Source of the DNA: Flavobacteriales bacterium
GTDB taxonomy: Bacteria; Bacteroidota; Bacteroidia; Flavobacteriales_F; PHOS-HE28
NCBI GenBank assembly: GCA_019638115.1
Contig: JAHBUK010000004.1
Location: forward strand, 224,794 to 288,793
Length of the DNA stretch: 64,000 nucleotides
Direction of reading: 5' to 3'
The position numbers were made by a program, and so were the translations under genes. Position 1 is the stretch's first letter. Every line of letters starts with the position of its first letter. The notes beneath the pieces were generated by a model. It saw only the letters and a list, made by a program, of their open reading frames with translations, did not search any database and had not been told where the DNA came from. Shown here piece after piece: positions 4,576 through 53,795 of the stretch.

Positions 4576-4800
4576 CTACTTGAAACGTTCATTGATGGCC
4601 TTCATGGTAGTGTACAGCATAATCTCATCGTCCTGCAAAACCACTCCATATTCCCTTTCCAGTACCCCAATTATGGCCACATGATTGAGGCTGTCCCAAC
4701 TTGCGTGAACCCCCATGCCAGACTCATCGCTGAGCGTATTCGCATCGACCTTGAGCAACTCTGCGATAATATCTCTAGGTGATCGTGGTGTCTTGGTCAT
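4576..4800 (-). CDS. stand-alone acyl/aminoacyl carrier protein (phosphopantetheine-binding)
   Basis: 74 aa. The GVHASWDSLNHVAIIGVLEREYGV stretch has the DSL serine motif of ACP/PCP/DltC-type carriers. It overlaps the upstream adenylation gene by 4 nt. Confidence 0.7.
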   Translation of the reverse strand: MTKTPRSPRDIIAELLKVDANTLSDESGMGVHASWDSLNHVAIIGVLEREYGVVLQDDEIMLYTTMKAINERFK

Positions 4801-6248
4801 GGTTGGTGCTTCTCTAAGGCGGTGTAGTCAATCTTCATATTGATGTTCCTGGGCAAAGACGGAAGCGATACGAAGGCACGAGGTTGCTTGAAGTCTTCGA
4901 GCTTCTGCTTTAGCAACTCTCTGAGGCTCGCCTCCTCAACGGGCTTGTCACTTTCGATGAAGGAATAAAGCCCATCAGAAATCTTGACCGTGGCACTTGC
5001 AAGTCCCGTATGCTTTGTAATCCAGTAGTCAATCTCAGCAGGTTCAACGCGATAACCGCGAATCTTGGTCTGGCGATCCTTCCGTCCTTGGAAATAGACA
5101 TTGTCGCCTTGCTCAGCAATGAGGTCACCGGTAACAAATGTTCGCTGCTCAATGCCGCCGATCTCCTGGGTACCGAATCCGTTGTTCTCAGGCAGGCCCA
5201 GGTATCCCTTGCCGATATGATCACCGTAGAGGATCACATCCAAAAGGCCTGACTCGTCGCTAGGTCTCGTAAGTATATTCCATCCGGGTATAGGTTTACC
5301 AATGCTTGCGGTTGTTCTACAATGGTTCTTGTAGGTTTCCACACCAAGCTCTTGCCAGGTGCAAAACAGCGTCCCCTCCGTTGGGCCGTATGTGTTGAAG
5401 ACTGTAACAGCCGGGTTTCTCTCGAATACAAAGTCAAGTTGATGCATCTTCAGAGCCTCGCCACAAAAGCTCATTAGCCTGAGGGAACTGAGATCAACAG
5501 ACTTGGTTTGGTTCCGAGTGATCATGAACTCCACGACGCTTGGGACCGAGTGCCAAATGGTAAGCCTATGCTTCTCAACCAAAGACCAAGGCACTCCTTT
5601 ATTCGCTTGAGCGTACGCAACCAACGTTGCCCCAGAACCAAGACATGTAAAGATGTCGACTATGCTCAAGTCAAAGCTCAGCAACGAAAACTGGGCCCAA
5701 AGGTCTGCCTCAGTAGCGCCATAGGTTGGTATCGACCACTCCAGAAACTTGTTCAAGCCCCGTCTGTAGATCTCCACGCCCTTGGGAGTTCCCATAGATC
5801 CAGAAGTGAATATGACATACGCACTTGCCTCTGGTTCAACTGTGACCCTGTCCACAATTGGTTCAGTCTTGGCGGACCTAAGTGTGCCGATGTATGTTGC
5901 ACGTCGACTAGAATAGTCCTCGGCCACCCTGTCTTCGCTCAATACCAATACGTCAGCCCCAAATGCCTCAATCATTTGATTCTTCCTCTCGATAGGTGCG
6001 AGTGGGTTCAGTGGACAGAACACCCCGCCGACGTATAACACGGCAATCTCCAGAGCGTATGCATCAACCCCCTGTAGCAGGTCGAAGGCAACCTTTGGCC
6101 TTGGGCCATACTTGGACAAGCCTGAGGCAAGCTCCAATACGAGGCCATGTAGCTCCGAATAGCTGACAGAGCGATCTCCTTCTATAACTGCAAGCGCAGA
6201 TGGCTTCGCCTCGACGGTCTCAATGAAATGGTCCAGGCAGTCCTTCAT
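4797..6248 (-). CDS. stand-alone AMP-dependent adenylation enzyme (ANL superfamily; DltA / amino-acid or aryl-acid adenylation type)
   Basis: 483 aa with the core motifs FTSGSMGTPKGV, YGPTEGT, GDL..., and RKDRQTKIRGYRVEPAEID. It has no condensation or thiolation domain of its own. Confidence 0.85.
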   Translation of the reverse strand: MKDCLDHFIETVEAKPSALAVIEGDRSVSYSELHGLVLELASGLSKYGPRPKVAFDLLQGVDAYALEIAVLYVGGVFCPLNPLAPIERKNQMIEAFGADVLVLSEDRVAEDYSSRRATYIGTLRSAKTEPIVDRVTVEPEASAYVIFTSGSMGTPKGVEIYRRGLNKFLEWSIPTYGATEADLWAQFSLLSFDLSIVDIFTCLGSGATLVAYAQANKGVPWSLVEKHRLTIWHSVPSVVEFMITRNQTKSVDLSSLRLMSFCGEALKMHQLDFVFERNPAVTVFNTYGPTEGTLFCTWQELGVETYKNHCRTTASIGKPIPGWNILTRPSDESGLLDVILYGDHIGKGYLGLPENNGFGTQEIGGIEQRTFVTGDLIAEQGDNVYFQGRKDRQTKIRGYRVEPAEIDYWITKHTGLASATVKISDGLYSFIESDKPVEEASLRELLKQKLEDFKQPRAFVSLPSLPRNINMKIDYTALEKHQP

Positions 6249-7411
6249 TGCTCACGCTCAATTGGAAATATCCAGTCCTCTTTGATATCGGGACACATCA
6301 CATCTTGCTCATGCACGTTTACCTCAAAGAAGCACTCGAAGGCGGCTTGTCGGACATCATCAAGATTGAACTTCCTCAACACCTTCCGAATGTTGCTTTG
6401 TGCGGAAGGATGGTCTGAGAACGCCTTTGCCGCGCCTAATACACCGAAGGTGTGAAGTCCATTGATGAGAACAACTGAACTCTTAGGATTGAAAGGATTC
6501 GGATAGCGCGCGAAGTATCCCCAATCCTTAACCGTCTTGTTACCCTCTCTCGTGGCCACGTACTTGCTTCCGCCAAAAAGCAGTTCCTCGCAATCGTCTG
6601 AGTAACTCACTCTCCCGTTCATTCTCTCCATCATAGTCTTACAAATCCTATTGCCATCTCCCCCCTCTTCACCGGGTCCGCCAATGACAACTAAGTTCCC
6701 TTCTATTGATGCGGAGAATGCATCAGCAGCGTACATGGGCGTTTCTATGCTGCGATAGTTTCGATGCATGAATGTCATCACCCACAATAGTGCGTCGCGA
6801 TCACCTAAGCTTTCAAGGAGCATCCAGTTCTCAGACTTAGGATCGGCATACTGCATTCGCTTCTCCGATTCAGAGGAAGTCACCACATGAACTAACCCCA
6901 CACCTGCAGGAAACCACAGCTTATTGAGGTATATGCTGTAGAGAGCATCGCCTTCAATCAGCTTCTTGAAGTGAGTCGCGAGTTCTTCCACAGTTGCCTC
7001 GACTAGTGCGTCCATGGTTTTGTACACTACGGGTAATCGATCCTTGATGTCTGCAGGAATTGGGAAGGTCACCATCGACGCTTCTGCCTTCATCAAGACG
7101 ACGGGTTTGTTCAGTCCATATAACAAACCGTACTCAAAGAAGATGTTTGGTTTACTCTCTGTGATATCTACCAGAGCCACGTGTGCCTTCCTTATCTGTG
7201 CTTCAATTTGCTGAGGTAGCCCCTGAAACACATCGCTGAAAGTGTATGTCGTTTCAATCTCGAAGTCTTGATAGTCCCTTCGCACCAAGCTCTCTGCTTT
7301 GGTAATGAGCAACTCCACCTTCGTTCTGAACGTGTCCAAATCATACGTCGGGTTCTTCGGCTCGAATGGGTGCGATACGAAGATGTTGATCTGTCTATAA
7401 CTTTTACTCAT
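6245..7411 (-). CDS. hypothetical two-domain protein; N-terminal ~130 aa resembles the nucleoside 2-deoxyribosyltransferase / TIR-like (SLOG-type) fold; C-terminal domain unassigned
   Basis: 388 aa. NIFVSHPF...AHVALVDITESKPNIFFEYGLLYGLNKPVVLM resembles the D...N...FE(L/Y)G...G.KPV signature of deoxyribosyltransferase-like domains. It is translationally coupled on both sides (4-nt overlaps) and low in GC. Confidence 0.5.
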   Translation of the reverse strand: MSKSYRQINIFVSHPFEPKNPTYDLDTFRTKVELLITKAESLVRRDYQDFEIETTYTFSDVFQGLPQQIEAQIRKAHVALVDITESKPNIFFEYGLLYGLNKPVVLMKAEASMVTFPIPADIKDRLPVVYKTMDALVEATVEELATHFKKLIEGDALYSIYLNKLWFPAGVGLVHVVTSSESEKRMQYADPKSENWMLLESLGDRDALLWVMTFMHRNYRSIETPMYAADAFSASIEGNLVVIGGPGEEGGDGNRICKTMMERMNGRVSYSDDCEELLFGGSKYVATREGNKTVKDWGYFARYPNPFNPKSSVVLINGLHTFGVLGAAKAFSDHPSAQSNIRKVLRKFNLDDVRQAAFECFFEVNVHEQDVMCPDIKEDWIFPIEREQ

Positions 7412-8023
7412 CTAACACCTCGTTTTGAACATCCCGCGATACTTCGCCAAAGGCTGAATCTGACCGCCTACCAATATCATTCCCTCTCCGACATCTGTGC
7501 GCACTGTCTCGCCTGCGCCAACATATGCACATGGACCAATCTTCCTTGGGCCGATTATCAGGGCATTCACTCCGACAAAGCTCCCACGATACACCACTGG
7601 GGACTCTTCTTCCGTCTCGTCCCAATCGAGAGTTGCGTTGTGATGACTATGAGCTATCTCGCCCATGTAGGTGACATTGTCTTCTATTACGGTGCGGTCC
7701 GCCACATGACCACCGATAATGCAGTGAGCGCCGATCTGAGCATCCTCGGATACGTGCTTGGCATAGAGGACGCGCGTCTTCATTCCCACCTGCGCGCCTC
7801 GACAGACTTTGGAATAGTCGTCTAGGATAACGCCGGTGCGTAGCGTTGCTCCAAGATGCACTGTGCAGAACGCGCCGATAATCACCCCATCCTCGATAAC
7901 CGTTGGCTCGTCTGACTGGTCGCCATAGCCAACGATTGAGCCATGACCTATGGTCACGTCTTTTCCAATCTTGACGTTTGGATGGACATAAATCCCAGAT
8001 CCGATCATACGGTACTCGCTCAT
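7412..8023 (-). CDS. left-handed beta-helix (hexapeptide-repeat) acyl/acetyltransferase
   Basis: 203 aa with repeated [LIV]-G-x-x-x-x hexapeptides: VKIGKDVTIGHGSIVGYG, IIGAFCTVHLGATL, IGAHCIIGGHV, YVGAGETV. Confidence 0.8.
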   Translation of the reverse strand: MSEYRMIGSGIYVHPNVKIGKDVTIGHGSIVGYGDQSDEPTVIEDGVIIGAFCTVHLGATLRTGVILDDYSKVCRGAQVGMKTRVLYAKHVSEDAQIGAHCIIGGHVADRTVIEDNVTYMGEIAHSHHNATLDWDETEEESPVVYRGSFVGVNALIIGPRKIGPCAYVGAGETVRTDVGEGMILVGGQIQPLAKYRGMFKTRC

Positions 8024-8832
8024 AGCGACTCTTCAATGATGCCCAGAGCCGTCTTGTAAATCCCGCGATGGATGAGCTTCGTCTCTGGATGGTTGAGATC
8101 TTCGTCAATCTCAATTCCAAAGCCATGCCCCACCCCTTTTATGATCTCTAGGCGTGTCTTCGGTGACTTGTGCTTCTTCGACGAAGTCAGCGGCACATCT
8201 TCGTCATCACTTCCATGAAAAATGACCACGCGCGAACCAAGATTCGACAGAGCCTGGATTCCGTTCACGTAGGGCAGTTCATTGATTAACGCACGGCCGA
8301 AACGTATCCCCGATGACTTAAGAAATCCGTGTTTGTCTAGCTGGCGGACGGCTGCCGGGGTTAAGCCCTTCTCCGTTACCAACTTGTTCCGTTCAAGGAC
8401 ATCGTTCTGGTAGTTGAGCACTGGCGCGTTGAGAATCACCTTCCTGATCTGCTCCTGCCGAGTGGTGTCCACCCAGTAAGCCGCGAGCCCCCCTCCGAAA
8501 CTGGTACCCACCAGGAAGAACCGCTTCGTACTTCGCTTGACACCTTCAGCCAGGGCGGTGTACGCAGCGGAAACGTCATTCACTATACCACTCAGCGTAA
8601 GCTCTTCAAGAGTGGTTTCGTGAACACCGTGAAAGCGATAGTCGAACCTGAAAGACGATACTCCATTTTCGGCCAGGTAGTTCGCATAGTCCGAGTGAAA
8701 GCCCAATTCATCACGCGAGGACGTAATACCATGCACAAAAAGAAGTGCCGCCTTTTCTTTGGCCGCTCTTTGCATGGTGCCTTCCAGCTTGTATCCATCG
8801 TAGCTACTGAACTTGATGGTCTCTTCGGTCAT
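8020..8832 (-). CDS. alpha/beta-fold hydrolase (serine hydrolase)
   Basis: 270 aa with an HG oxyanion motif (LLFVHGITSS), the nucleophile elbow GTSFGG, and a C-terminal GVGHGF histidine. Confidence 0.8.
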   Translation of the reverse strand: MTEETIKFSSYDGYKLEGTMQRAAKEKAALLFVHGITSSRDELGFHSDYANYLAENGVSSFRFDYRFHGVHETTLEELTLSGIVNDVSAAYTALAEGVKRSTKRFFLVGTSFGGGLAAYWVDTTRQEQIRKVILNAPVLNYQNDVLERNKLVTEKGLTPAAVRQLDKHGFLKSSGIRFGRALINELPYVNGIQALSNLGSRVVIFHGSDDEDVPLTSSKKHKSPKTRLEIIKGVGHGFGIEIDEDLNHPETKLIHRGIYKTALGIIEESL

Positions 8833-9130
8833 GGGATTCGCCTTTCATTAAGGGTTGACGGCCGATGCTGACTAACGCATGCCGGAAAATCCGTCAAGCG
8901 CCTCAGCTCCAAACATAGTCACTAACACGCAATCTTTGGCGCTATAGCCTCGGTGCTCCGCAGCCCCCCCTCCCGCGGATCTGCGATCCCTGGTTTCGAG
9001 CATGGCACACCCCCTGAACCGGTCCTTTCCCCAATTGGCAGAGTTCTCGCGCGCTGGTGCATTGATCCTATCTTGCTGTCGATAACCTTGCCAGCAAAAC
9101 CGTCGAGACCGGGTTCCAATTTCAACCTTT

Positions 9131-24200: not shown

Positions 24201-24656
24201 TCATTTCCGACCCTTGCCCACAACCTCCTTCAGCAGGAACTGCTCCGCATCCATCACCGGTATGTCCGCGAAGTGGAAGTCCTTGCGGTCGTAGGTGATG
24301 ATGAACCCGCATTTCGCCTCAATGGCAGAATGGTACTGTAGACCATCCTCGATGTCGCTTATGCGCTTATCGGCGAGGGTGCGATCCATGGCCACCTGGC
24401 CCACACTGGTCATGCGTATTTTCTCACCCAGCAGTGCGATCTTCTTGCGAGCCAGTTTCTTGCCTCCCGCAGTGTTGCGCGACTTCTTCTCTGCGAAGTA
24501 TGCTCCGATGGCCATGCACAAGGGTGAGGTGTAGACCTCGAAGCGCGGGTCATCCACCAAGCTCAACACACGCGAACACGGACCGAAGCGCGGGTACTCG
24601 TTGCAAAGCACTGTGACCAGGATGTTGGCGTCGAGGAATATGCGGATGCGTGCCAT
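24201..24656 (-). CDS. PIN-domain protein (VapC-like toxin)
   Basis: RIFLDANILV N-terminus with acidic residues spaced as in PIN domains. 151 aa. Confidence 0.75.
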   Translation of the reverse strand: MARIRIFLDANILVTVLCNEYPRFGPCSRVLSLVDDPRFEVYTSPLCMAIGAYFAEKKSRNTAGGKKLARKKIALLGEKIRMTSVGQVAMDRTLADKRISDIEDGLQYHSAIEAKCGFIITYDRKDFHFADIPVMDAEQFLLKEVVGKGRK

Positions 24657-24779
24657 GGTTTACAAGAGAATGCAGCTCACACGGAGGCACGGAGCGCCCC
24701 CCTGTACTTGGGTGAGGGGTACGGGTGAAGGCGCATTCCCTCCGTGCCTCCGTGTCTCCGTGTGAGATAAGGTGCATGC

Positions 24780-25046
24780 TCAGCGTGACCGGCGCCGGCT
24801 CGCCAAGTAATCCTTCTTCACGTTCCGCTCGGATGCATTCTTCCGCACGTACTCCACCTCCCCTTCCGCAACGGCACTTACCCAATCGCTTACCGGCAGC
24901 TCATCAATGCTGCGGTAGCGCTTGTCGGTAACCTTGCTGAGCATGAACTCCACCAAGCGCGACAGGCTGATGTTGTTGGCTTCGGCGAAAGCCTTGGCCT
25001 TATCGGCCACGGTGGCATCGAAGCTGAGGGTGATCTTGGCGTCCAT
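24780..25046 (-). CDS. small protein upstream of the PIN gene; possible antitoxin
   Basis: 88 aa: MDAKITLSFDATVADKAKAFAEANNISLSRLVEFML.... Same strand as the PIN gene, 123 bp upstream of it. Confidence 0.4.
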   Translation of the reverse strand: MDAKITLSFDATVADKAKAFAEANNISLSRLVEFMLSKVTDKRYRSIDELPVSDWVSAVAEGEVEYVRKNASERNVKKDYLASRRRSR

Positions 25047-25545: not shown

Positions 25546-25863
25546 TCAATTCTTGGGCCTGCGTAGCACAGCCACGTTCATGGCGGGCTCAAGCTTCACC
25601 AGTTCCCAACCCTTGGCCTCGAACTCCTGCACGGTGGCGAATACCGCATTGACCATCCTGGTGGTTGCTCTAACGGTCAAGCCCTTCCTACGCTCCCGCT
25701 CCACAGGTACCAACTTGGACTGTGCAGTATCCGTTGCGATGACCATTACCTGCGCGTTCACCGGGTTGTATTGGATCCAGACGTATTCATGGATGCCGCC
25801 GCTTTGTGCGGATGAACGTGTGGTGGCGAGTATGAGGAAGAGGAAAAGGAGGAGCTTCTTCAT
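25546..25863 (-). CDS. small secreted protein, paralogous to 26627..26926
   Basis: MKKLLLFLFLILATTRSSAQ signal peptide. Shares HEYV...EGWELV...LRRPK with the paralogue. Confidence 0.5.
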   Translation of the reverse strand: MKKLLLFLFLILATTRSSAQSGGIHEYVWIQYNPVNAQVMVIATDTAQSKLVPVERERRKGLTVRATTRMVNAVFATVQEFEAKGWELVKLEPAMNVAVLRRPKN

Positions 25864-25895
25864 GGTCCGACCAGCCCTTGCTGTTGCAAACAGTT

Positions 25896-26462
25896 TTAGT
25901 GCTTCAAGTCGAAAGTTACATAGCTGCCCCCTGGTTCCGACCACCGCACACCCTTCGCCACGCTGGTGACCAGCTCCACAAAAGCATAGTGAGGACCCGG
26001 ACCGCCCATGCAGTCGTGATCAAATCGCTTCAGAACACTACCCTGACGAACTTCCACCCAGCATCTGCCACCATCCGCACAATCCGGACAGCCGATCTTC
26101 CGAATGCTGAACTCCGACCACAGACTTGTGGTATCCACTGCGTGAAGTATGGCTCGATACTTCTCCACGGATATGGGAACAACTTGCCGTTGCCTTGGAT
26201 AGGCGGTGGTGTCCCACCCAACGCGCTTGCATTCCAGCCCCCATGAATGGATCCTGAACTCCGACTTGCAATATCCATAACACATCCCTGCCGACCATCC
26301 AAAACTGATCGCGATGCTGTCCGGCTCTTCGATCACTATTGGCCGAGCTTCAATGGGTTCCACCGGAACGCCGGCTTCTTCACTCGGGGCAAAGTCAGTG
26401 CCCATACAGCCCGCTAACGCCAAAGCGACCAGACCAATGCTCGTTCGCAGATGGCGCCCCAT
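25896..26462 (-). CDS. hypothetical lipoprotein
   Basis: LALAGC lipobox after a signal peptide. 188 aa, Cys-rich. Confidence 0.5.
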   Translation of the reverse strand: MGRHLRTSIGLVALALAGCMGTDFAPSEEAGVPVEPIEARPIVIEEPDSIAISFGWSAGMCYGYCKSEFRIHSWGLECKRVGWDTTAYPRQRQVVPISVEKYRAILHAVDTTSLWSEFSIRKIGCPDCADGGRCWVEVRQGSVLKRFDHDCMGGPGPHYAFVELVTSVAKGVRWSEPGGSYVTFDLKH

Positions 26463-26626: not shown

Positions 26627-26926
26627 TCATCTCTTCGGCCTGCGCATCAGGAACGAACCCGGTACATGATTGACCATGACCAGTTCCCACCCCTCCCGTT
26701 CATGCTGCTGAACAAGCTGCATGACTTTCCTATAAGCAAGGTGGGAATCCTGCTTGAGCTCGGTTGAAGTGAGTTCAATCTTTTGCGTGACCTCATCCGG
26801 TGACACGATGTAAATGAGAGCGTGATTGACGTGCTGGAGCAGCACGTACTCGTGCTCGCCCTTTACTTGAGCAACTGCCATCATTGCAAACAAGCACCAC
26901 GACAAGCTCAAGATGATCCTCTTCAT
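26627..26926 (-). CDS. small secreted protein (paralogue of 25546..25863) located between the two ffh-3'-end repeat copies
   Basis: MKRIILSLSWCLFAMMAVAQ signal peptide. HEYVLLQH...EREGWELVMVNHVPGSFLMRRPKR. Confidence 0.55.
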   Translation of the reverse strand: MKRIILSLSWCLFAMMAVAQVKGEHEYVLLQHVNHALIYIVSPDEVTQKIELTSTELKQDSHLAYRKVMQLVQQHEREGWELVMVNHVPGSFLMRRPKR

Positions 26927-26972: not shown

Positions 26973-28313
26973 TCACCTCCTCATCCCCTGCGCCTGCTGC
27001 ATCCGCTGCATCATCGCCTGCATCTTGCTCTTGTCGCCCATCATCTTCATCATCTTCCGGGTCTCGTCGAACTGCTTCAGCAGCTTGTTCACCTCGGGGA
27101 TGTCGCGGCCACTGCCTTTGGCGATGCGCTGACGACGGCTGCCGTTGATCAGGGCCGGGTTCTGGCGCTCCTCGGGCGTCATGCTGCGGATGATGGCTTC
27201 GATGTGCTTGAAGGCGTCGTCCGGGATATCGAGGTTCTTCATGGCCTTGCCCACGCCGGGGATCATGCCCATGAGGTCCTTCATGTTGCCCATCTTCTTG
27301 ATCTGCTGGATCTGCTCCAGGAAATCATCGAAGCCGAACTGGTCCTTGGCGATCTTCTTCTGCAGTTCACGCGCCTGCTTCTCATCGAACTGCTCCTGTG
27401 CGCGCTCCACCAGGCTCACCACGTCGCCCATGCCCAGTATGCGGCCGGCCATACGATCGGGATGGAACTCGTCCAGCGCCTCCATCTTCTCGCCGGTGCC
27501 GATGAACTTGATCGGCTTGTCCACCACGCTGCGGATGGTGAGCGCCGCACCACCGCGGGTATCGCCGTCGAGTTTAGTGAGCACCACGCCGTCGATGTCC
27601 AAGCGGTCGTTGAAGGCCTTGGCGGTATTCACGGCATCCTGGCCGGTCATGGCATCCACCACGAAGAGGGTCTCCTGCGGCTGGCTGGCCTTCTTCACCC
27701 GGGTTATCTCGTCCATCATCGCCTCGTCAACCGCCAGGCGTCCGGCGGTATCGATGATCACGGCCGTGAAGCCGTGGGCCTTGGCGTGGGCGATACCTTT
27801 CTGGGCGATGGCCACCGGGTCCTTGCTGTCGCGATCGCTGAAGACCGTGATGTCCAGCTGTTTGCCGAGCGTTTCAAGCTGGTCTATGGCCGCAGGGCGG
27901 TACACGTCGCAGGCCACCAGCAGGGGCTTCTTGCCTTTCTTGCGCAGGTAGGCCGCTAGTTTTCCACTGAAAGTGGTCTTACCCGAACCCTGCAGACCGC
28001 TCATCAGGACCACCGTGGGGTTGCCACTGAGGTTGATGGCCTGGTTGCGGCCGCCCATCAGTTCGGCCAGTTCGTCGTGCGCGATCTTCACCAGCACCTG
28101 GCCGGGGCTAACGGCCGTAAGCACGTTGGCACCCAGCGCCTTGGCCTTCACACGATCGGTGAATTCCTTGGCGGTCTTGAAGTTCACGTCGGCATCCAGC
28201 AAGGCGCGACGTACCTCCTTCATGGTCTCGGCCACGTTGATCTCGGTGATCTGGCCTTGTCCTTTCAGGACTTTGAACGCTCTTTCGAGCTTGTCGTTGA
28301 GATTCTCGAACAT
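26973..28313 (-). CDS. ffh: signal recognition particle protein Ffh (NG domain + Met-rich M domain)
   Basis: 446 aa with GLQGSGKTT P-loop, DTAGR, TKLDGDTRGG and a C-terminal Met-rich tail MMKMMGDKSKMQAMMQRMQQAQGMRR. Confidence 0.95.
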   Translation of the reverse strand: MFENLNDKLERAFKVLKGQGQITEINVAETMKEVRRALLDADVNFKTAKEFTDRVKAKALGANVLTAVSPGQVLVKIAHDELAELMGGRNQAINLSGNPTVVLMSGLQGSGKTTFSGKLAAYLRKKGKKPLLVACDVYRPAAIDQLETLGKQLDITVFSDRDSKDPVAIAQKGIAHAKAHGFTAVIIDTAGRLAVDEAMMDEITRVKKASQPQETLFVVDAMTGQDAVNTAKAFNDRLDIDGVVLTKLDGDTRGGAALTIRSVVDKPIKFIGTGEKMEALDEFHPDRMAGRILGMGDVVSLVERAQEQFDEKQARELQKKIAKDQFGFDDFLEQIQQIKKMGNMKDLMGMIPGVGKAMKNLDIPDDAFKHIEAIIRSMTPEERQNPALINGSRRQRIAKGSGRDIPEVNKLLKQFDETRKMMKMMGDKSKMQAMMQRMQQAQGMRR

Positions 28314-28589
28314 GTCTGGCTCTTTCTACAGGGACCGCGAAGGTAGTGGGGAGGTGTGAGGTGGCCTCCTTCACAGATCACACCTAACACTTCACACATC
28401 ACATTTCTTTCGGGGGCGTGCCCCTCGCTAAGCCTCGGGTCGGGTCCTCTGCTGTAGCCGACTTGTAAGGGCCAGCGGCTGCGGCGCTGCGGTGGCTTCC
28501 TCCGGTCGCCTCCTCGCTCGCGCCACACCTGCGCTTCGTCAGCGGCAGGCTGCCGCTTCAATCCCTCACGCTGTTAATTTCGTCAACGA

Positions 28590-29981
28590 ATGAAGATCAA
28601 AGCTCCTTTCGAAGGGTACTTCCATGTTCACGAACCTGAAACAGTCCAGGTTGCTGGACGAATCGAGTTCGACGTGATGACAGGTATTCGCCTTACCACA
28701 ATTGGCTCGTTTCATAAAGAGTTCATTCGATCAGGGGGTGAACAACGGTGGAGTTGTATTCATGGCTTCTCAACTAATGGACGGAAACTAACCCTGCTTG
28801 ACTGCAGAGGTCATGAGAACAGCAGTATCCCAGGCATTCCGAAGGGTTCCTACAGCTCGAAGTGTTTACTCGCCGGGCATCAACACTACGACCCTCAAAC
28901 GCCTCAAATCAAGAGCATAGCTTTCCGGATAACATACTTCGATGAATGGCTGAACCGATCCGGGGTTTCCTACGAAGCCAGCAATGAACTTTTCGGAGCC
29001 TTCACCGCAACTCATAAACATCAAGGGGCTATTCAACTCCATTTCGGGCCTCGCTTGAATGTCAGTATCTGGCATCACACGAATACACCCATGTTCGCTG
29101 AACATGATGTGTTGCGCAAGTTCAGTGAACAGGCGTACTTCAATGTTCAGTACTCCGAGCTAAGTACCATCGATCAGGCAATGGAAGACATGTTGATGAT
29201 CAGAGACCTCTTCAGTCTCCTCATGTCCGCACCAATCGTCATCGAGGATGCCGTCGCATTCATCGACGGTGAAAAGGAAGATGATGGTCGACGATTCGAA
29301 CTCTACTTCCCCTTAGGCTATGGATACCCTACCCGAGAGTCACAGCCAAGGCATTACATGCTCTATCCCTACGACGACATCGAGTCATTCATCGGGACGA
29401 CCTTGGAAAAATGGATTGAACTATATCCATCGATAAAGCGTGGGATAGCCTTCTACCACGAATCATATTTCAGCCGATCGCGCCACGCCTTTCAAAAGTT
29501 CATCGACTACGTCTTTAGTTACGAATCAACGAACAGATCGCTACATCCTTTGGAGCGATTCCCAGAGCAGGAGTACACTGCGTTATGCGCCGACCTTCTA
29601 GAGGGATTATCACCAACTCATGGAAACTTTGTTAGAGACATCCTCAAGCACGCTAATCAAGCCTCGCTGCGGCAACGACTCAAAGGCACATTCGAGCGGA
29701 CGGGTCTGGATGAAATATTTGATAGGAAGTCCATAAAGCTTCATACCGACCGGATTGTGAATGCGAGGAACAACATAGTTCACTTTGCGGAGGTGAACAA
29801 TGAAGAGACTGTATCAGAAGAAAACGTGGTCGACTACAATACCCTGGTCCGTATGTTGATCATTGGAGATCTGCTCTTGGCTATCGGCATCCCCAAGGAG
29901 GATATTGCAACTCGGCTGAAACGAGACCCAAATTTCGGCTTCTTGCTTATTGGAAGAAAGCTGAGCACTCTCAGCATTTAG
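28590..29981 (+). CDS. low-GC orphan protein with C-terminal HEPN-type Rx4H motif; candidate abortive-infection/RNase-type defence protein
   Basis: 463 aa, GC clearly below neighbours. The C-terminal KLHTDRIVNARNNIVHFAE contains R-x4-H. No other recognisable domain. Confidence 0.5.
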   Translation: MKIKAPFEGYFHVHEPETVQVAGRIEFDVMTGIRLTTIGSFHKEFIRSGGEQRWSCIHGFSTNGRKLTLLDCRGHENSSIPGIPKGSYSSKCLLAGHQHYDPQTPQIKSIAFRITYFDEWLNRSGVSYEASNELFGAFTATHKHQGAIQLHFGPRLNVSIWHHTNTPMFAEHDVLRKFSEQAYFNVQYSELSTIDQAMEDMLMIRDLFSLLMSAPIVIEDAVAFIDGEKEDDGRRFELYFPLGYGYPTRESQPRHYMLYPYDDIESFIGTTLEKWIELYPSIKRGIAFYHESYFSRSRHAFQKFIDYVFSYESTNRSLHPLERFPEQEYTALCADLLEGLSPTHGNFVRDILKHANQASLRQRLKGTFERTGLDEIFDRKSIKLHTDRIVNARNNIVHFAEVNNEETVSEENVVDYNTLVRMLIIGDLLLAIGIPKEDIATRLKRDPNFGFLLIGRKLSTLSI

Positions 29982-30264
29982 ACCCGAGACCACGTCCAAT
30001 TGCAGCACCCAATCCACCCCGCCCCTCCCGCCCTTCAACCGCTCAACAGTTCCCGCTTCCACCATCACTCGCGTCCCCTTCATTCGCAGCATAAAAGCCA
30101 TCGTCTGCTCGCGTTACGGGCCATCCGAGCAACTGCAAGTCCGAGACGTGCCCTAACCTGCGGCAGGCTTTCGCTTCACCCACACACCGCAAAAGGAGGT
30201 CAAAGACTACAAACTGCCTCGCTTCGATCATTGTCGCGTTCGCCACTTTGCGCACCTTCGCCCC

Positions 30265-47504: not shown

Positions 47505-49214
47505 TTGATCATGCAGTCCTGCTCACATACCCGATATTCATGGCGATTCTGTTTCCTATTCGCCTCCTCTATCCATGGTGTAATTGGTTACGGACAGATC
47601 GAGTACAACAGACATCACGCTTTCTCGATATCAGAATCGACCGGTGCCTTTAATTGTGAACCGGATGGACGCGGAGGTGGGTACTATGAGGTCGTGAATT
47701 ATGGATGCATGGATCTTGCGTATGGGAATGCCTTGCACACGGTTTGTCAAAGCTCCAACTACGTCAACCCATTTCGCACACTGATCCACTATGACCAGAA
47801 CGACGCACTGGTATGGACGCTTGACAGTTTACGTGTGCATGATATGGAGCACGACGAAACAGGTGGGATCGTCTTTGTTGGCGATGCACATATTCACGCC
47901 GATCTAGACCCAGGTCCAGGTGTGACAACCGTGGCCGGTGGACTGAAGGTCATTGCAAGCTATCGAGCTGATGGGACGCTAAGGTTCGCCCATCGGCTCC
48001 CTACCGGGTCCTCCTACTTTCAACGGGTCGCGTTAGCGAAGGATGGCAGTGTAGTGGCCGTGGGCGAATTCCAGCAACCATTCGACTTGGACCCAACGAG
48101 TGAAATAGCTTGGATCGAGCCGATCTTCACCACTGAGTCCTCAACCTTTCTGGCCCGATATGATTCATTGGGCACCCTCGTAGACCATCAGGTGTTCGAC
48201 TCCAGGAATATGTCTTCAATTGAGCACGTTGTGCTATCTGATAACCATGTTTACCTGCTGTGCGGTTCCTTCAACGCAACAGGGGAACCAATGGTCGCTG
48301 CTATCCGAACACTGACTGACAGCATTGTGGTTCAGCGGAACGAGCCCTATGCATTCGTTCTACTCTGTTTTAATGTCCAACTGGATCTGGAATTCGCACA
48401 TGTCGTGGATTGTAATAGTGGCAGTGTCGGGTCGCGATTGTTCAAACTTGGCCAGGATAGGATGTTGTTATATGGCCAAGGAAGTATGCCTTATGACCTG
48501 GACCCAGGGCCTGCCACGGTAGGTACGGCTAGCGGAGGCCGTTTCATGGCAGAATATGGGCAGGAATGGGCATACCACTGGAATGGAACCTTTCCGATCG
48601 GTGTGGTCAATGTCCAAGGTGCTGTGTTGGATGGCCTTAACCGGCTGTACATCGCGGGCAACATTCAAGGCACAGCTGATATTGACCCTACGGATGGAGA
48701 GGTTCTCGGATCTACAACAACGAACAGTCTGATGTATGTTGTCAAACTCAATAGCGTCCGTTTGACCGAATGGGCAATACCCTTCGGTTCCGAGGTATAT
48801 AGTAACTTAAGGGGTATTTACTTGGATGATGAATTAGTGCTGTATTTTTCTGCAAATGGTATGATGGACGTACAGCCGGGTCCATCATCCATGTACGTTG
48901 GTTGTCCGGATCCTGGAGTAGGAGCAGTAATCGCACACTATACCGTCAATGAGTTGAGCACGTCCCTATCGGGATCTCCAATTCCGACCGACCTACGGAT
49001 ATTGCCAAATCCGGCATCGGACGTGGTGCAGATTGAAGCACCCGCTCCGTTCGACCTAACACTCTTCGATGCGAACGGGCGCCTGATCATCTCCAAGGCT
49101 TACACCGATCCGCGCTCAATTATTCAAGTTGCCGATCTAGCCGAGGGTCTCTACGTGGTCCAAGTGCGTACGGCGAACTCGGTCGTCTCTCGTACCCTTG
49201 TCATCCAACACTAG
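47505..49214 (+). CDS. lower-GC secreted protein with T9SS type A C-terminal sorting domain
   Basis: 569 aa. The C-terminus LRILPNPASDVVQIEAPAPFDLTLFDANGRLII...GLYVVQVRTANSVVSRTLVIQH is a Por sorting domain. Confidence 0.6.
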   Translation: MIMQSCSHTRYSWRFCFLFASSIHGVIGYGQIEYNRHHAFSISESTGAFNCEPDGRGGGYYEVVNYGCMDLAYGNALHTVCQSSNYVNPFRTLIHYDQNDALVWTLDSLRVHDMEHDETGGIVFVGDAHIHADLDPGPGVTTVAGGLKVIASYRADGTLRFAHRLPTGSSYFQRVALAKDGSVVAVGEFQQPFDLDPTSEIAWIEPIFTTESSTFLARYDSLGTLVDHQVFDSRNMSSIEHVVLSDNHVYLLCGSFNATGEPMVAAIRTLTDSIVVQRNEPYAFVLLCFNVQLDLEFAHVVDCNSGSVGSRLFKLGQDRMLLYGQGSMPYDLDPGPATVGTASGGRFMAEYGQEWAYHWNGTFPIGVVNVQGAVLDGLNRLYIAGNIQGTADIDPTDGEVLGSTTTNSLMYVVKLNSVRLTEWAIPFGSEVYSNLRGIYLDDELVLYFSANGMMDVQPGPSSMYVGCPDPGVGAVIAHYTVNELSTSLSGSPIPTDLRILPNPASDVVQIEAPAPFDLTLFDANGRLIISKAYTDPRSIIQVADLAEGLYVVQVRTANSVVSRTLVIQH

Positions 49215-49217
49215 GAC

Positions 49218-49312
49218 AAGCTCGAACTTGCGTAGGGCTTCCTGAGGCACGAAGGGGCCCTGCGCTTTAGGACGTGGCCGCAGGGTCCCGAAGACGGAGA
49301 CCCTTCGGAGAT
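49218..49312. repeat. REP-like palindromic repeat element (family copy 1) at a convergent gene end
   Basis: ...cttcctgaggcacgaaggggccctgcgctttaggacgtggccgcagggtcccgaagacggagacccttcggag. The GGGRCCCTGCG / CGCAGGGTCCC arms form a stem. Confidence 0.75.
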
Positions 49313-49340
49313 TATGTGATCATGAAGAAACTATAATGAC

Positions 49341-50486
49341 TCAGGTGTTTGCCCGGATGTACGCTCTGAGCTTGCCTTCCTTCCGCATCTTGAGCAACTT
49401 CTCCAAGTCTTTGTTCTTACCCAGGTCGGTCAGGTTGTTCTCGTAGAACTCCAGTACATGCTCGGTGGCATAGATGTTCGCATCCACTGGGTTGTCGTTC
49501 ATGCGCAAAACGTGTGTGGTGTAGCCTCCCAGGTAGATCATCAAGCATTCATGCTGTTCGGTGTAGGGTACGATCGCTTCCTTGATCTCAATGCTTACCA
49601 GCGGTGAGCCCATGATCCATTGCAGCAGAAATGCGCTCAAGTCTTTGCGTTTTGCAGGCTCAGCACTCACGGGCGTGCTGTAGAGCCATTCATAGGCTAG
49701 AAGCACTTCAGGCACAAGCGCGGTATAGTCATCGGCAGATCGAGGAGTGTCCTTTCCAGCACCCTCTGTTCCAAGAACCTTCTTCGCCACTTCCTGATGG
49801 ATCCTGGCTCCAAGGTCCTTCGCCTTAATGATATACGGACGGGCCTCATCATATCGATTCGCATGATAATGCACCAATCCGACCAGGTGATAGCCATCCA
49901 TCAGGTGTGCATCGCCCGAGGCCTCGTAGATCGCCAATGCCTTGAGCGCATTCTCCAACGCTGCATCCAACTGCTTCTCTTGCAGCTGCATATTAGCCAG
50001 GCCGAAGTATCCTTCAGCGTTATCCGGCAGCATCTCGATAAGCGACTCGTACATCCTTACGGCATTGACCCGGTCTCCAGTTATGCTGTAGACCAACGCC
50101 AGATTTTGGCGAGCCATTTGTCCTTGCGGGTAGATCTCCAAGGATCGTTGGTAGTTCTTTATCGCAAGGTCGTACTCACCAGCTTGCCGATGCACTTGGC
50201 CCAGGTTGTCATAAGCCTCCACGAATTGCGGATCCTCCTTGATCGCCTTGGCGTAGGACTTTTTGGCTGCAGCAAGCTCGCCGGCTCGGTGTTCGCGCAA
50301 ACCTTGACGGTAAGCCACCATGGCCTTTTCCGAAGTGCTTCCATTGTACATTTCGGTTGATGTCCCCTTCAACTGCATATCACCGGCTCCCTTGGCTTTC
50401 ACCAACTCGTTCCGGGTATCGTTCTGGGCATATGAGGACGATGCCAGCAAAACGGTGGTGGCGAGGATAAAGGCGTGAAGATCCAT
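49341..50486 (-). CDS. secreted tetratricopeptide-repeat protein
   Basis: Signal peptide MDLHAFILATTVLLASSSYAQ, then several TPR units (AYDNLGQVHRQAGEYDLAIKNYQRSLEIYP...). Confidence 0.7.
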   Translation of the reverse strand: MDLHAFILATTVLLASSSYAQNDTRNELVKAKGAGDMQLKGTSTEMYNGSTSEKAMVAYRQGLREHRAGELAAAKKSYAKAIKEDPQFVEAYDNLGQVHRQAGEYDLAIKNYQRSLEIYPQGQMARQNLALVYSITGDRVNAVRMYESLIEMLPDNAEGYFGLANMQLQEKQLDAALENALKALAIYEASGDAHLMDGYHLVGLVHYHANRYDEARPYIIKAKDLGARIHQEVAKKVLGTEGAGKDTPRSADDYTALVPEVLLAYEWLYSTPVSAEPAKRKDLSAFLLQWIMGSPLVSIEIKEAIVPYTEQHECLMIYLGGYTTHVLRMNDNPVDANIYATEHVLEFYENNLTDLGKNKDLEKLLKMRKEGKLRAYIRANT

Positions 50487-50715
50487 GCTCTGATGTGTTC
50501 GGCTGATGAAAGTAGTACATGATCCGTTCCTGTAATGAAGATCCAATGTTTCCAATTGCTCCTGATAAGTCCAATGAGCAATGAAGCTCTCAGGATAACT
50601 ACGAGCCAACCAATGCGCAGATGTTGGCAGCTTGGATCATCACCGCTGGGCATTCAGGCCGATCCGCATTACATTCACGGTCGTACAATTCCATCCACCT
50701 GTTAAATCGCGGTCC

Positions 50716-53556
50716 ATGGTGTTCCCCAGACTGTTATTGTTCATCATCCTTATGACCGGCTTTGGTGCTGAATGTTTCACCAACAGAGCTGTAGGCCAGG
50801 CTGGTGCCATCGATCACTCGTTCGCGCCCAGCGACTTTGGGCATGGCAACGGCGAAAGCAACCATACCATTGGTCGATTGCTTCCCTTGCCCGATGGCAA
50901 CATGTTGATCGCCGGCCAATTCACGCTTTTCCAAGGAAGAACCATGAACGGCTTGGCACTGCTGGATCCAGAAGGAAGGGCCGTACCGTGGTTCAATAGC
51001 GGAAGCAGCCCCAATAGTGGCATGAAAGCATTGGCACTGACCTCGGATAACAAGATCATGGTGGGTGGATCCAACTTCAGCTACGAGGGAGGTGCACCAA
51101 CATCTCTGGTACGCTTGCATATGGACGGCTCACGTGATACGAGCTTCAACGCCCCATGGAGCACATTCACAGAGGTCTTTGAGATAATCGCCATGGACGA
51201 TGGCCGCTACTTGGTCGGCGGCCGGTTCACTTCGACCAACTCCGTTCCCTACAATTGTTTGGTCCGACTGATGCCTGACGGCAGTATGGACCCATCCTTC
51301 ACCAATTCGATCGGATTCAATTCCTCCTCGGCCGATCCTGTCGCAGTAACAGCACTGCACATCTTACCGGACGGGCGCATTCTGGTGGGCGGGAATTTCT
51401 CGCAGTATGAAGGGCAGTGGGTATCCCGGCTTATCCGGCTGAATTCAGATGGTAGCAGGGACAACACGTTCGGTACCAACTTGAGCTTTACCAACTCCAT
51501 AACGAACTCCACCAATGTTTCATCGATCCAAACGGATGGTCTCGGCCGAATTCTGGTTACAGGGTTGTTCACACAAGTCAATTTGTCCTTGCGCAGCGGG
51601 CTGGCCCGGCTAACTGCTGACGGTTTCTTGGACGACTCATTCACCACTGGAAGCGGGTTGCACGGCAACAACTCGGGCAATTTTCCTTACAGCATAAGTC
51701 GCCCATGCATTTCATCCAATGGTCAAATACTCGTTATTGGTCGTTTCAACAGCTACAATGGTACCCCACGCGTGAATGCCGTGTTGTTGGATGAGCAAGG
51801 TGGAATGATACCTGACTTCGACATCAACATGAGCGATATCGGATCTTCGCGTATTTCCACTTGTCTCCAACAAGCAGATGGCCGGTTCATTCTTGCAGGA
51901 TATGTCCACCGTGTGCAGAACATCGGTCTCAAAGGACTGTTCCGAATTGGTGCCGATGGTGTCTTGGATATGACCTACAACCGATTCGGAACTGGCGTGA
52001 ACGGCCAGATCAGATCGATGGAGATCGACACCAACGGAAGGGTCTTGATAGCTGGTGATTTCACCAGTGTTGGGGGCCGACCTTATAACAACTTGGCACG
52101 ATTGGCACACAACGGCGAGTTGGATACGACCTTCAATATCGGCACTGGCTCCAATTTCAGAATTGATCATGCGTCCATTCATTCCTCAGGGAGAATAAGC
52201 GCGGCAGGTTGGTTCCATGATTTTAATGGTCAAGGAAGCCAACACATTGTGACCTTGGAGGAGGACGGTTCCAACTGGCCCTCGTTTCTATGTTCACCCG
52301 GACCGGGAAATATCACCTACGCAACATTGGCTCAGGACAGTGGCAAATTGGTGATCGGTGGAAACTACATCGACGTTAACAACGTTCCGTTCCACCGCAT
52401 CGCCAGGATCCTTGAGAATGGAGACCTCGATGAAACGTTCAATATCACAGGGACCTCGATCCGGGGAGCATCAGGAGCTGTGCATGCGCTACTCAAGGAC
52501 GGGGACGGGAACATATTGGCAGGCGGAGCATTCAGTAGCTACAACCAGCAAGTCGCGAGAAGAGTGGTGAAACTGGACCCGAACGGCTCTCTTGTCCCTG
52601 ATTTCCAATGTACCACCATCATGAATGGCGAAGTGCTTGCCATGGCCATACAAGACGATGGAAAGATCCTGGTCGGTGGTTCGTTCAGTTCCAACGGCAA
52701 ACTGATACGCCTCAACACGGATGGAAGCTTGGATTCGACGTTCTCGGTTGGTCTTGGTCCTACCGGACAGAGCAGCCAAATAAAGGCACTTGCTCTTGAT
52801 AACGAAGGACTCATCTACGCAGGCGGGCATTTCTCGGGATTCGATGGCCACTTGTACCGAAACCTCGTTCGCTTGCATCCGTGGGGCGAAGTGGATACCA
52901 CGTTCACGACAGGAACTGGATTCAATTCCTTTGTGAACGCTCTCGCGGTGCATGATCACAAGCTCTATGTCGCCGGCAATTTCACGGATTACAACGGCAC
53001 CGGCAGAAATAGGATCGCTCGTCTCAGATTGGAATGTTACGCCGCTGGTACGCCTTGCAACGATCACGACCCATGCACGGAGAACGACACCTACGACAAG
53101 CGTTGTGAATGCGTCGGCACACTGATCGATAGCGACGGTGATGGGGTTTGTGACCTATACGATGTATGCCCGGACCAGCCCGAACCGGGCACACCATGCG
53201 ATGACGGTGATCCGTTGACCATCAATGACGTTGTACAACCCGATTGTCAATGCATGGGCGAACTCGACACGGAGACGCATGTTGCACGCGACCATGGCCT
53301 CACGTTGTACTCGCTTTACCCGAATCCGTCCGAAGGAGGTCTTATCCACCTGCAGATACCTGTCGATGAAAAGGATCAGATCCAGAAGATATCGATCATC
53401 GATAGCAGGGGCGCACGTGTGTATGAGCGGATCGCACCGATCAATACGCACTCCGGTCTTCTCCAGATCCGGACAAATGGCATGTCCGCTGGTTATTACA
53501 CCCTATTGGTGCAGATGAGGGATCGAACAGTGCCGCTATCCTTCGCGATACAATAG
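50716..53556 (+). CDS. secreted delta-60-repeat (beta-propeller-type) protein with Cys/Asp-rich module and T9SS C-terminal sorting domain
   Basis: 946 aa. It has many ~55-60-aa repeats of the form ILVGGxFxxYNGxxxxRLxRLNxDGSLDxSF, then CxDxDGDGVCD-like modules, then the tail TLYSLYPNPSEGGLIHLQIP...GYYTLLVQMRDRTVPLSFAIQ. Confidence 0.7.
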   Translation: MVFPRLLLFIILMTGFGAECFTNRAVGQAGAIDHSFAPSDFGHGNGESNHTIGRLLPLPDGNMLIAGQFTLFQGRTMNGLALLDPEGRAVPWFNSGSSPNSGMKALALTSDNKIMVGGSNFSYEGGAPTSLVRLHMDGSRDTSFNAPWSTFTEVFEIIAMDDGRYLVGGRFTSTNSVPYNCLVRLMPDGSMDPSFTNSIGFNSSSADPVAVTALHILPDGRILVGGNFSQYEGQWVSRLIRLNSDGSRDNTFGTNLSFTNSITNSTNVSSIQTDGLGRILVTGLFTQVNLSLRSGLARLTADGFLDDSFTTGSGLHGNNSGNFPYSISRPCISSNGQILVIGRFNSYNGTPRVNAVLLDEQGGMIPDFDINMSDIGSSRISTCLQQADGRFILAGYVHRVQNIGLKGLFRIGADGVLDMTYNRFGTGVNGQIRSMEIDTNGRVLIAGDFTSVGGRPYNNLARLAHNGELDTTFNIGTGSNFRIDHASIHSSGRISAAGWFHDFNGQGSQHIVTLEEDGSNWPSFLCSPGPGNITYATLAQDSGKLVIGGNYIDVNNVPFHRIARILENGDLDETFNITGTSIRGASGAVHALLKDGDGNILAGGAFSSYNQQVARRVVKLDPNGSLVPDFQCTTIMNGEVLAMAIQDDGKILVGGSFSSNGKLIRLNTDGSLDSTFSVGLGPTGQSSQIKALALDNEGLIYAGGHFSGFDGHLYRNLVRLHPWGEVDTTFTTGTGFNSFVNALAVHDHKLYVAGNFTDYNGTGRNRIARLRLECYAAGTPCNDHDPCTENDTYDKRCECVGTLIDSDGDGVCDLYDVCPDQPEPGTPCDDGDPLTINDVVQPDCQCMGELDTETHVARDHGLTLYSLYPNPSEGGLIHLQIPVDEKDQIQKISIIDSRGARVYERIAPINTHSGLLQIRTNGMSAGYYTLLVQMRDRTVPLSFAIQ

Positions 53557-53644: not shown

Positions 53645-53795
53645 AGTTCAAACCTGCGCAGAGTCTCCTGAGGTTCGAAGGGACCCTGCGCTTTAGGCCT
53701 TCAAACCTGCGCAGAGTCTCCTGAGGCACGAAGGGACCCTGCGCTTTATGCCTTGACCACAGGGGCTCGAAGACGGAGACACTGTGGAGGTATAT
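53645..53795. repeat. REP-like palindromic repeat element (family copy 2; two tandem ~57-bp units plus a partial unit)
   Basis: tcaaacctgcgcagagtctcctgaggttcgaagggaccctgcgctttaggcct is repeated with 3 substitutions, then ...gaccacaggggctcgaagacggagacactgtggagg. Confidence 0.8.

Follow-up and report, generated by a model that had tools for sequence, protein, structure and literature searches.

What does a single gene of comparatively low GC content, placed next to the core gene ffh, encode, and how did it come to be there? The question is raised by a 64,000-nucleotide stretch of contig JAHBUK010000004.1 from a Flavobacteriales bacterium (assembly GCA_019638115.1, positions 224,794 to 288,793), hereafter the window. 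The gene, a complete open reading frame (ORF) that runs from an ATG to a TAG codon at 28590-29981 (+), codes for 463 amino acids (aa). We consider it quite probable that the product is a stand-alone HEPN ribonuclease of the family characterized by the Pfam domains ApeA_NTD1 and HEPN_Apea, that is, an accessory enzyme that would be gated by its N-terminal domain (NTD) in response to infection. By analogy with HEPN biology in general and with characterised ApeA, proteins of this class would serve in antiphage defence or abortive infection.

Family membership and predicted catalytic centre

The protein matches PF18862 (ApeA_NTD1) over aa 7-275 (positions 2-271 of the 271 in the profile; E = 7.1e-36, 124.5 bits against a cutoff of 25.5) and PF18739 (HEPN_Apea) over aa 325-437 (E = 1.6e-10, 42 bits against a cutoff of 24.4 bits). 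The PADLOC model for the candidate system PDC-S58 (PDLC05048) aligns along positions 6-444 of its 461 with aa 7-447 (E = 1.9e-40), and the PADLOC 'Cas13-ApeA' model matches the HEPN half only (1.3e-20, aa 255-440). Judged from these profiles, the protein is a member of the ApeA_NTD1 + HEPN_Apea family (PDC-S58), which was defined by Anantharaman et al. 2013 as the ApeA/BMEI1217 HEPN family with ApeA-NTD1, the latter domain being described as 'mostly beta strands' (PMC3710099). Membership in RiboL-PSP-HEPN (PF18735) was considered and rejected: the match (aa 337-424, E = 0.0023, 18.3 bits) is below the Pfam cutoff of 28.4, the architecture is different, and the weak similarity reflects the common HEPN core. 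NCBIfam gave no match for this protein or for the tested ApeA proteins Ec1ApeA and Ec2ApeA, and the exact protein has no record in the index of encoding contigs.

A profile of the clade, run with HMMER against 1.84 billion cluster representatives, retrieved 3,953 proteins at E<=1e-3 and 1,841 at E<=1e-10; the unit of this count is the cluster at 50% identity, so that the family comprises ~3,950 such clusters. Among the 150 family matches listed, nearly all are 430-500 aa long and aligned end to end. The immediate clade is small, with 12 clusters in 5.8 billion proteins; two further word-indexed profile searches for homologues brought just six more sequences, and only two close-clade loci, both in metagenome-assembled genomes (MAGs) of Bacteroidota, were found in ~185,600 species-representative genomes. 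The sequence-only reading of this locus, which had described the gene as an orphan with no recognisable N-terminal domain, is not upheld on either count, since the ~460-aa architecture is common to thousands of clusters and aa 7-275 correspond to the catalogued ApeA_NTD1. Its description of an uncharacterised member holds, the family being catalogued computationally, in Pfam and as a PADLOC candidate.

The putative catalytic motif, Rx4H (R393-H398), lies within the peptide HTDRIVNARNNIVHFAEVNNEE at aa 385-406, 65 residues before the C-terminus and not at the extreme end. Within the close clade, R393, N394 and H398 do not vary. Across 116 aligned, diverse relatives, mostly 15-25% identical to the query, only W275, E312, R393 and H398 are invariant, and each of H315, R316, N356, L360, R363 and N394 is kept by at least 90% of the sequences. 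On its own, an Rx4H motif is weak evidence; the match to HEPN_Apea together with the invariance of R393 and H398 among the 116 relatives raises it above chance.

Structure prediction with AlphaFold2 from 11 sequences gave a pLDDT of 62; with four distant members added, the pLDDT rose to 85.2 and the pTM was 0.83 (model m33fe9abb3e30). In the latter model, 17 strands, 3 helices and a short strand bridge occupy aa 7-239, and aa 261-453 contain helices only (268-294, 300-318, 326-337, 342-352, 360-370, 379-399 and 413-431). Such a combination of a beta-rich NTD with a helical C-terminal domain agrees with the description of the family (PMC3710099). The long helix 379-399 carries the RNNIVH segment at its C-terminal end, so that R393 and H398, the predicted catalytic dyad, sit on a helix within a C-terminal domain that is all-alpha. 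The HEPN-type Rx4H motif proposed in the sequence-only reading is supported by the HEPN_Apea match, by its invariance in the relatives and by this helical placement, and the structural check suggested there, that the segment should lie in a helical HEPN-type domain, came out in its favour. Searches of the PDB by sequence, with the protein and with the family profile, gave no meaningful match. Faint Foldseek matches of the good model concern Hcp and tail-tube-like proteins for the N-terminal domain, and one unnamed viral protein of 222 aa (probability 0.99).

Composition and history of the locus

The start of the ORF appears soundly called because its N-terminus, MKIKAPFEGYFHV, co-aligns with the N-termini of all close homologues. 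Its GC content is 0.479 (0.547 at third codon positions, GC3), compared to 0.578 for the whole window; the neighbouring genes range from 0.51 to 0.63 (GC3 0.60-0.86), and 1392-bp windows across the 64 kb have a mean of 0.577 with a standard deviation of 0.042. The lowest-GC stretch is located at 54.6-56.4 kb (0.453) and is not the ApeA-like ORF. Both the 463-aa ORF and its position beside ffh had been reported previously from the sequence and are borne out by the ORF call and by the Pfam matches of ffh (SRP54, 9e-76, plus SRP_SPB and SRP54_N). The AT-richness claimed for the gene is real, although its size was overstated (48% vs 58-62% GC, not ~45% vs >60%), and the GC-rich spacer that separates it from the divergent ffh is indeed GC-rich (0.62) and measures 276 bp, not ~260 bp.

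In a second sample (Logan SRR29353002, L005), DNA 100% identical to the window extends from 26998 to ~31938 and includes the whole gene. A related metagenome contig (L008), in which ffh and the hydrolase show 85% and 74% aa identity, respectively, has no ApeA-like gene; the same slot is occupied by a 322-aa gene of the zinc-dependent alcohol dehydrogenase (ADH) or quinone-oxidoreductase type (939-1907; ADH_N + ADH_zinc_N). Positions 30019-30153 of the window are 76% identical at the nucleotide level to L008 866-1001 and correspond to the upstream region and the first 21 codons of this ADH gene. The translation of the remnant, IKAIVCSRYGPSEQLQVRDVP, which ends in a stop, compares with MKAIVCERYGPPEQLQLRDVPV in L008, and its ATG has become ATA. 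Because the remnant matches L008, window positions 28352-30018 constitute, relative to that contig, an insertion accompanied by deletion of ~1 kb of the ADH gene; as read from this alignment, the ADH remnant is the scar of a gene replacement at the locus.

On another contig, L088, the ApeA-like gene is likewise found beside ffh (76% and 90% aa identity, respectively), along with an additional membrane ORF of 188 aa and, downstream, a fragment that from reading of the sequence resembles an IS-type transposase. Homology between L088 and the window begins at 28553, 37 nt before the ATG. Since the contents of L008 and L088 differ, the divergent side of ffh is a variable slot.

Low GC content is a consistent property of the gene: in six homologous loci, it has a GC content of 0.47-0.52 within flanks of 0.52-0.69, and the GC profile of contig L007 likewise shows a low-GC gene in higher-GC flanks. 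More distant relatives adjoin, in one case, type I restriction-modification (R-M) and HNH genes and, in another, are surrounded by RHS-repeat, TniB and HTH_17 genes in a region that resembles a mobile element. Plasmids of six genera, one of them archaeal (Photobacterium, Thiothrix, Halomicrobium, Sinorhizobium, Priestia and Pseudomonas), carry relatives as well, and the annotation of these reads simply 'HEPN domain-containing protein'. A phage origin was rejected, as neither IMG/VR nor the GenBank phage genomes yielded a relative. Comparison of these loci indicates that the ApeA-like gene is accessory and horizontally acquired, residing in a variable slot beside ffh. Horizontal acquisition, as already suggested from the sequence, is in agreement with the exchange of the slot contents in L008, the ADH remnant and the low-GC homologues in higher-GC flanks, and the homologues are patchy, low-GC and accessory rather than chromosomal core genes of uniform GC.

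Upstream block and surroundings

A block composed of a hairpin (GCGGCA-GGC-TGCCGC), the motif ATCCCTCACGC and then TAATTTCG precedes the gene (Table 1). Homologues in other contexts (L003, L004, L088, L007 and L095/96) likewise have ATC[CG]CTCACGC upstream, and hairpin, ATC[CG]CTCACGC and a TAnnTTTG-like box accompany the gene across different genomic contexts. The TAATTTCG element resembles what we take to be the Bacteroidota −7 box. Judged from its recurrence, the block is a probable promoter or operator of the gene's own that travels with the gene. A scan for sigma-70 promoters and terminators around the gene gave nothing above shuffled background, the consensus used not being expected to suit a Bacteroidota-type genome. 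Over about 160 nt, the spacer shares 72% identity with the leader of the L003 homologue, which is itself 81-86% identical, and the 276 bp contain no credible ORF and no Rfam family; a structured RNA or riboswitch in this leader was rejected given the lack of an Rfam match and a fold z-score of −0.64. Within the 64 kb, GCGGCAGGC is found only at 28542 and 30160. The second, degenerate copy, directly after the deletion junction, is statistically weak and may represent either a coincidental match or the scar of a recombination event. The direct repeat was not accepted as proof of a mobile cassette, there being two copies only, at 79% identity, and we regard it as suggestive.

Table 1 Features at and around the ApeA-like gene in the 64-kb window.
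Feature	Coordinates	Strand	Basis
ApeA_NTD1 + HEPN_Apea protein (PADLOC candidate PDC-S58)	28590..29981	+	ORF call, Pfam, PADLOC
ApeA_NTD1 domain (aa 7-275), beta-rich, putative sensor/regulatory domain	28608..29414	+	PF18862 match, AlphaFold model
Apea-like HEPN domain (aa 325-437)	29562..29900	+	PF18739 match; modelled helical domain ~aa 261-453
Predicted catalytic HEPN motif R393-N-N-I-V-H398 (Rx4H)	29766..29783	+	Conservation, position in model
ffh (SRP54 GTPase), core gene at conserved edge of variable slot	26973..28313	-	Pfam
Spacer between ffh and the ORF (276 bp, GC 0.62)	28314..28589	.	Composition, ORF, Rfam and fold scans
Upstream block: hairpin, motif ATCCCTCACGC, then TAATTTCG	28542..28582	+	Recurrence upstream of homologues
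21-codon 5' remnant of zinc-dependent ADH / quinone-oxidoreductase-type gene	30091..30153	+	Match to L008
Degenerate second copy of upstream block (79%)	30160..30187	+	Repeat search; directly after deletion junction

The neighbours of the gene are ffh, the hydrolase, a DUF4440 gene and a GNAT gene. It is inside the GNAT gene, from ~31939, that the L005 contig starts to diverge from the window by ~2%, which suggests recent recombination or a mixed-strain assembly. There is no partner gene for the ApeA-like gene at the locus and no tRNA gene in the window.

At 24201-25046 (-), 3.5 kb from the ApeA-like gene, the gene for a 151-aa PIN_3 protein adjoins that for an 88-aa DUF6364 protein, and the two look like a VapC-type toxin-antitoxin pair. 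Between this pair and ffh, a slightly low-GC stretch contains two small ORFs, 25546-25944 (-) and 26627-26926 (-), with apparent signal peptides and a similar sequence pattern (...EYV..Q...GWELV...RRPK), suggesting that they are paralogous; neither has a Pfam or PADLOC match. Farther away, a DUF6119 protein of 589 aa (Pfam, 1.2e-27; 54604-56373, -; GC 0.45-0.47; no PADLOC match) is probably encoded by another horizontally acquired accessory gene. Two other patches of lower GC content (~0.50-0.52) encode an AMP-binding enzyme, a hexapeptide transferase, a hydrolase and a 388-aa ORF (4000-9000), and proteins with type IX secretion system (T9SS) tails, TPR proteins and DUF5122 propeller proteins (48000-53000). 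A palindromic repeat of ~45-90 nt (ACCTGCGCAG.GTCTCCTGAGGCACGAAGGGACCCTGCGC...), present at 53647-53754 and 60500-60735, 7 kb apart, looks like an REP-type intergenic element. The host, with a GC content of ~58-60%, is a member of the Bacteroidota according to its SprB, PorP/SprF and T9SS sorting domains.

Proposed function and comparison with known systems

In the mechanism that we propose by analogy, two copies of the protein would pair via their HEPN domains, creating a composite RNase site, and the enzyme would stay silent until the NTD detects an infection cue; a pocket of conserved HEPN residues (H315, R316, N356 and R363) possibly joins the NTD in sensing. The activated enzyme would then cut RNA, either tRNA anticodon loops or phage RNA, and the cutting would stop the phage from replicating, whether or not the host cell dies.

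The characterised ApeA assembles into rings of HEPN dimers and causes abortive infection by cleavage of tRNA anticodon loops; Ec2ApeA is activated by 5'-phosphorylated deoxydinucleotides in a pocket between its N-terminal and HEPN domains (10.64898/2026.01.26.701840), and Ec1ApeA also cuts the genomes of RNA phages, the cell not being killed (10.64898/2026.03.20.713152). ApeA as described by Gao et al. 2020 is a HEPN-dependent antiphage RNase of ~600 aa (10.64898/2026.01.26.701840; 10.64898/2026.03.20.713152), and ApeA monomers are reported to be predominantly alpha-helical by cryo-EM, with separate N-terminal and Mid domains (10.64898/2026.01.26.701840). A close relative of Ec2ApeA (WP_072664300.1) and Ec1ApeA (WP_000706972.1), both from E. 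coli genomes (loci L001 2501-4252 and L002 2501-4306), were used for comparison. Neither matches ApeA_NTD1 or HEPN_Apea at E<=1. In PADLOC, both match the ApeA model PDLC02157 and no other (1386 bits for Ec1ApeA and 45 bits for Ec2ApeA), a model to which the window protein has no match at E<=10.

Similarity to the tested proteins is confined to patches around the HEPN signature. The stretch FLxLxQALE aligns with LLNLWIAIE of Ec2ApeA (E371), and the catalytic stretch RIVNARNNIVH aligns with IRRIYRTRNLIVH of Ec2ApeA (RIYRTRNLIVH, R502-H507) and with RIYKVRNKITH of Ec1ApeA (R521); the Glu-bearing helix precedes the catalytic helix both in the window protein and in Ec2ApeA. The ligand pocket of the tested proteins is reported to involve Y37, E74, R148, H487, R490 and Q494 in Ec2ApeA and E28, T34 and R485 in Ec1ApeA (10.64898/2026.01.26.701840; 10.64898/2026.03.20.713152). 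Of these, Ec1ApeA R485 pairs weakly (2.3 bits) with the near-invariant R363, at distances from the catalytic Arg of 36 and 30 residues, respectively; Y37, S40, E74 and R148 of Ec2ApeA and E28 and T34 of Ec1ApeA have no alignable counterpart in the window protein. As far as the alignments indicate, any kinship with the tested ~600-aa ApeA proteins is remote at best, and the likeness is confined to the HEPN signature patches. A 'minimal' ApeA homologue reported by Drobysheva et al. was rejected as a proxy because text and figure legend conflict on its identity (Bp1ApeA or Bm1ApeA); in a translation by eye of the plasmid sequence, moreover, Bm1ApeA looks helical over its first ~130 residues, unlike ApeA_NTD1.

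Several observations weigh against a sensor-gated defence RNase. Comparison of the window protein with the tested ApeA proteins is insignificant in BLASTP (E>0.4), the hhalign probability is 1.4%, and the family HMM scores only 8.4 and 2.2 bits on them in hmmsearch; because the similarity is insignificant, the tested mechanism cannot simply be transferred. Foldseek found no structure at E<1e-3 for the good model in the PDB or BFVD, and the HEPN fold consequently rests on the Pfam match and the secondary structure, without a three-dimensional superposition. No experiment on any protein of the ApeA_NTD1 type was found in the searchable literature, and PDC-S58 is explicitly a candidate only (10.1101/2024.01.29.577857). 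With respect to context, PADLOC applied to ten window proteins (nearby ORFs and those of other low-GC regions) gave no match near the gene, the sole match being a weak one to a TIR effector (6e-6) in the 388-aa ORF at 6245-7411 (-), ~21 kb away. The PDC systems, 145 candidates in all, were nominated for genes embedded within BREX, DISARM or type I R-M systems (Payne et al. 2024, 10.1101/2024.01.29.577857), and no R-M, BREX or DISARM genes adjoin the gene in this window, where the PIN_3/DUF6364 pair is its only conflict-type neighbour; such surroundings, however, describe the context and do not define the protein. Damaged homologues also have to be taken into account: one that is 81-86% identical is frameshifted into ORFs of 216 aa and 252 aa (L003 410-1800; L004 48-1438), and that on L007 is fragmented.

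These damaged copies, together with the rearrangement scars at the locus, could be taken to mean that the gene is decaying or already inactive, on its way to becoming a pseudogene. We regard this as very improbable, given that the ORF is intact, full length and identical in a second sample and retains all the family-invariant residues; furthermore, L003 and L004 (one an NCBI MAG, the other a JGI contig) share 99.5% identity, so that they may stem from the same data rather than being independent, and L007 is suspected to come from an error-prone long-read assembly. A selfish toxin of mobile elements, acting in addiction or competition as a plasmid-stabilising or anti-plasmid RNase without a part in phage defence and left behind as chromosomal cargo, would account for relatives on plasmids beside IS21 and PIN/Phd toxin-antitoxin modules, for the relative amid RHS-repeat and TniB genes, for the transposase-like sequence directly downstream in L088 and for the solitary position of the window gene, which has no defence neighbours. 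However, an adjacent antitoxin or immunity ORF is found neither here nor consistently in the homologues, and the class was nominated as embedded within R-M, BREX or DISARM; defence genes being typical mobile cargo as well, the context does not discriminate, and overall this explanation appears improbable to us.

An unlikely alternative of another kind is that the protein is a bona fide functional orthologue of Ec1ApeA and Ec2ApeA, with a decameric or dodecameric ring, a small-nucleotide pocket, cleavage of tRNA anticodons and abortive infection. The shared RI(V/Y)xxRNxIxH context, the common order of the two helix patches and the weak pairing of R363 with R485 at similar spacing are what such orthology would predict, whereas the mutual mismatch of the family models, the N-terminal pocket residues that cannot be aligned, the difference in length of ~120-140 aa and the predicted beta-rich rather than alpha-helical NTD argue against it. 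At the opposite end, the ~460-aa ApeA_NTD1 class might, instead of being a 'minimal ApeA', form a defence family with a mechanism of its own: an ApeA-type HEPN effector in which a beta-rich sensor replaces the helical N-terminal and Mid domains and responds to a different cue, the hairpin and the ATC[CG]CTCACGC block being a dedicated regulatory or recombination site. We put this forward tentatively, as a possibility less likely to be right than wrong; if true, the pocket arginine on the HEPN side is perhaps kept, and the cue, instead of deoxydinucleotides, could be something like a structural protein of the phage or the end of a nucleic acid. Under the interpretation that we favour, namely a stand-alone HEPN ribonuclease gated by its NTD, the window protein probably works like ApeA as a sensor-gated RNase while falling outside the tested ApeA system, and its trigger likely differs from that of the tested proteins.

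As a single gene, the locus adds little to a family that, with thousands of members, has been in Pfam and in the PADLOC candidate list for years. It does expose a naming trap, in that neither the Pfam 'ApeA' domains nor the system studied as 'ApeA' matches the models of the other; because of this mismatch between models, the tRNase and deoxydinucleotide mechanism may be wrongly transferred to proteins of the PDC-S58 type. The class with a beta-rich NTD also provides a natural comparison for how different sensor domains gate the same HEPN effector, and the locus is a clean small case of gene replacement at a core-gene boundary, in which a zinc-dependent ADH gave way to a defence-type gene, leaving a scar of 21 codons.

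Among known systems, HepT toxins (PDB 5YEP, 7AE8) are reported to have the closest solved fold to the ApeA HEPN domain (10.64898/2026.01.26.701840). The HEPN helical core with Rx4-6H is alike in HepT/MntA and in the window protein, but the latter has an extra N-terminal domain of ~270 aa and shows neither a PDB sequence match nor a Foldseek match at E<1e-3; an adjacent gene for an MNT (nucleotidyltransferase) antitoxin is lacking, as no credible ORF is present in the 276-bp and 283-bp flanks and the neighbours are ffh and the hydrolase. An HEPN protein associated with CRISPR type VI or Cas13 was rejected, since Tandem Repeats Finder detected no CRISPR-like array in the 64 kb and the 'Cas13-ApeA' match covers the HEPN half only.

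With Ec1ApeA and Ec2ApeA, the window protein has in common the organisation as a single protein with a C-terminal HEPN domain, the RNxIxH context after a conserved Glu-bearing helix and, probably, the logic of a sensor region that gates an HEPN RNase. It differs from them in size (463 aa compared to ~600 aa), in its predicted beta-rich NTD as opposed to helical N-terminal and Mid domains, and in that neither side matches the family models of the other, the overall similarity being insignificant. The description 'ApeA-like single gene' given in the sequence-only reading is accordingly apt for the Pfam family of Anantharaman et al. 2013 and inapt for the ~600-aa ApeA of Gao et al. 2020. Both kinds are found as cargo of mobile elements: in E. 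coli, the Ec1ApeA gene is located between an IS2 element and a MobQ relaxase gene, and an Ec2ApeA-type gene, annotated as 'hypothetical protein', lies between tail and baseplate genes of a P2-like prophage.

Compared with the ApeA/BMEI1217 family itself, nothing essential differs. The sub-clade of the window protein is rare and has GYFHVHEP where the rest of the family has the near-invariant N-terminal motif GxWWLP, and the window gene is located outside any defence island, whereas relatives adjoin R-M genes. The full-length architecture of ~460 aa, the beta-rich NTD, the Rx4H motif, the single-gene organisation and the patchy, mobile spread over bacteria and archaea are the same.

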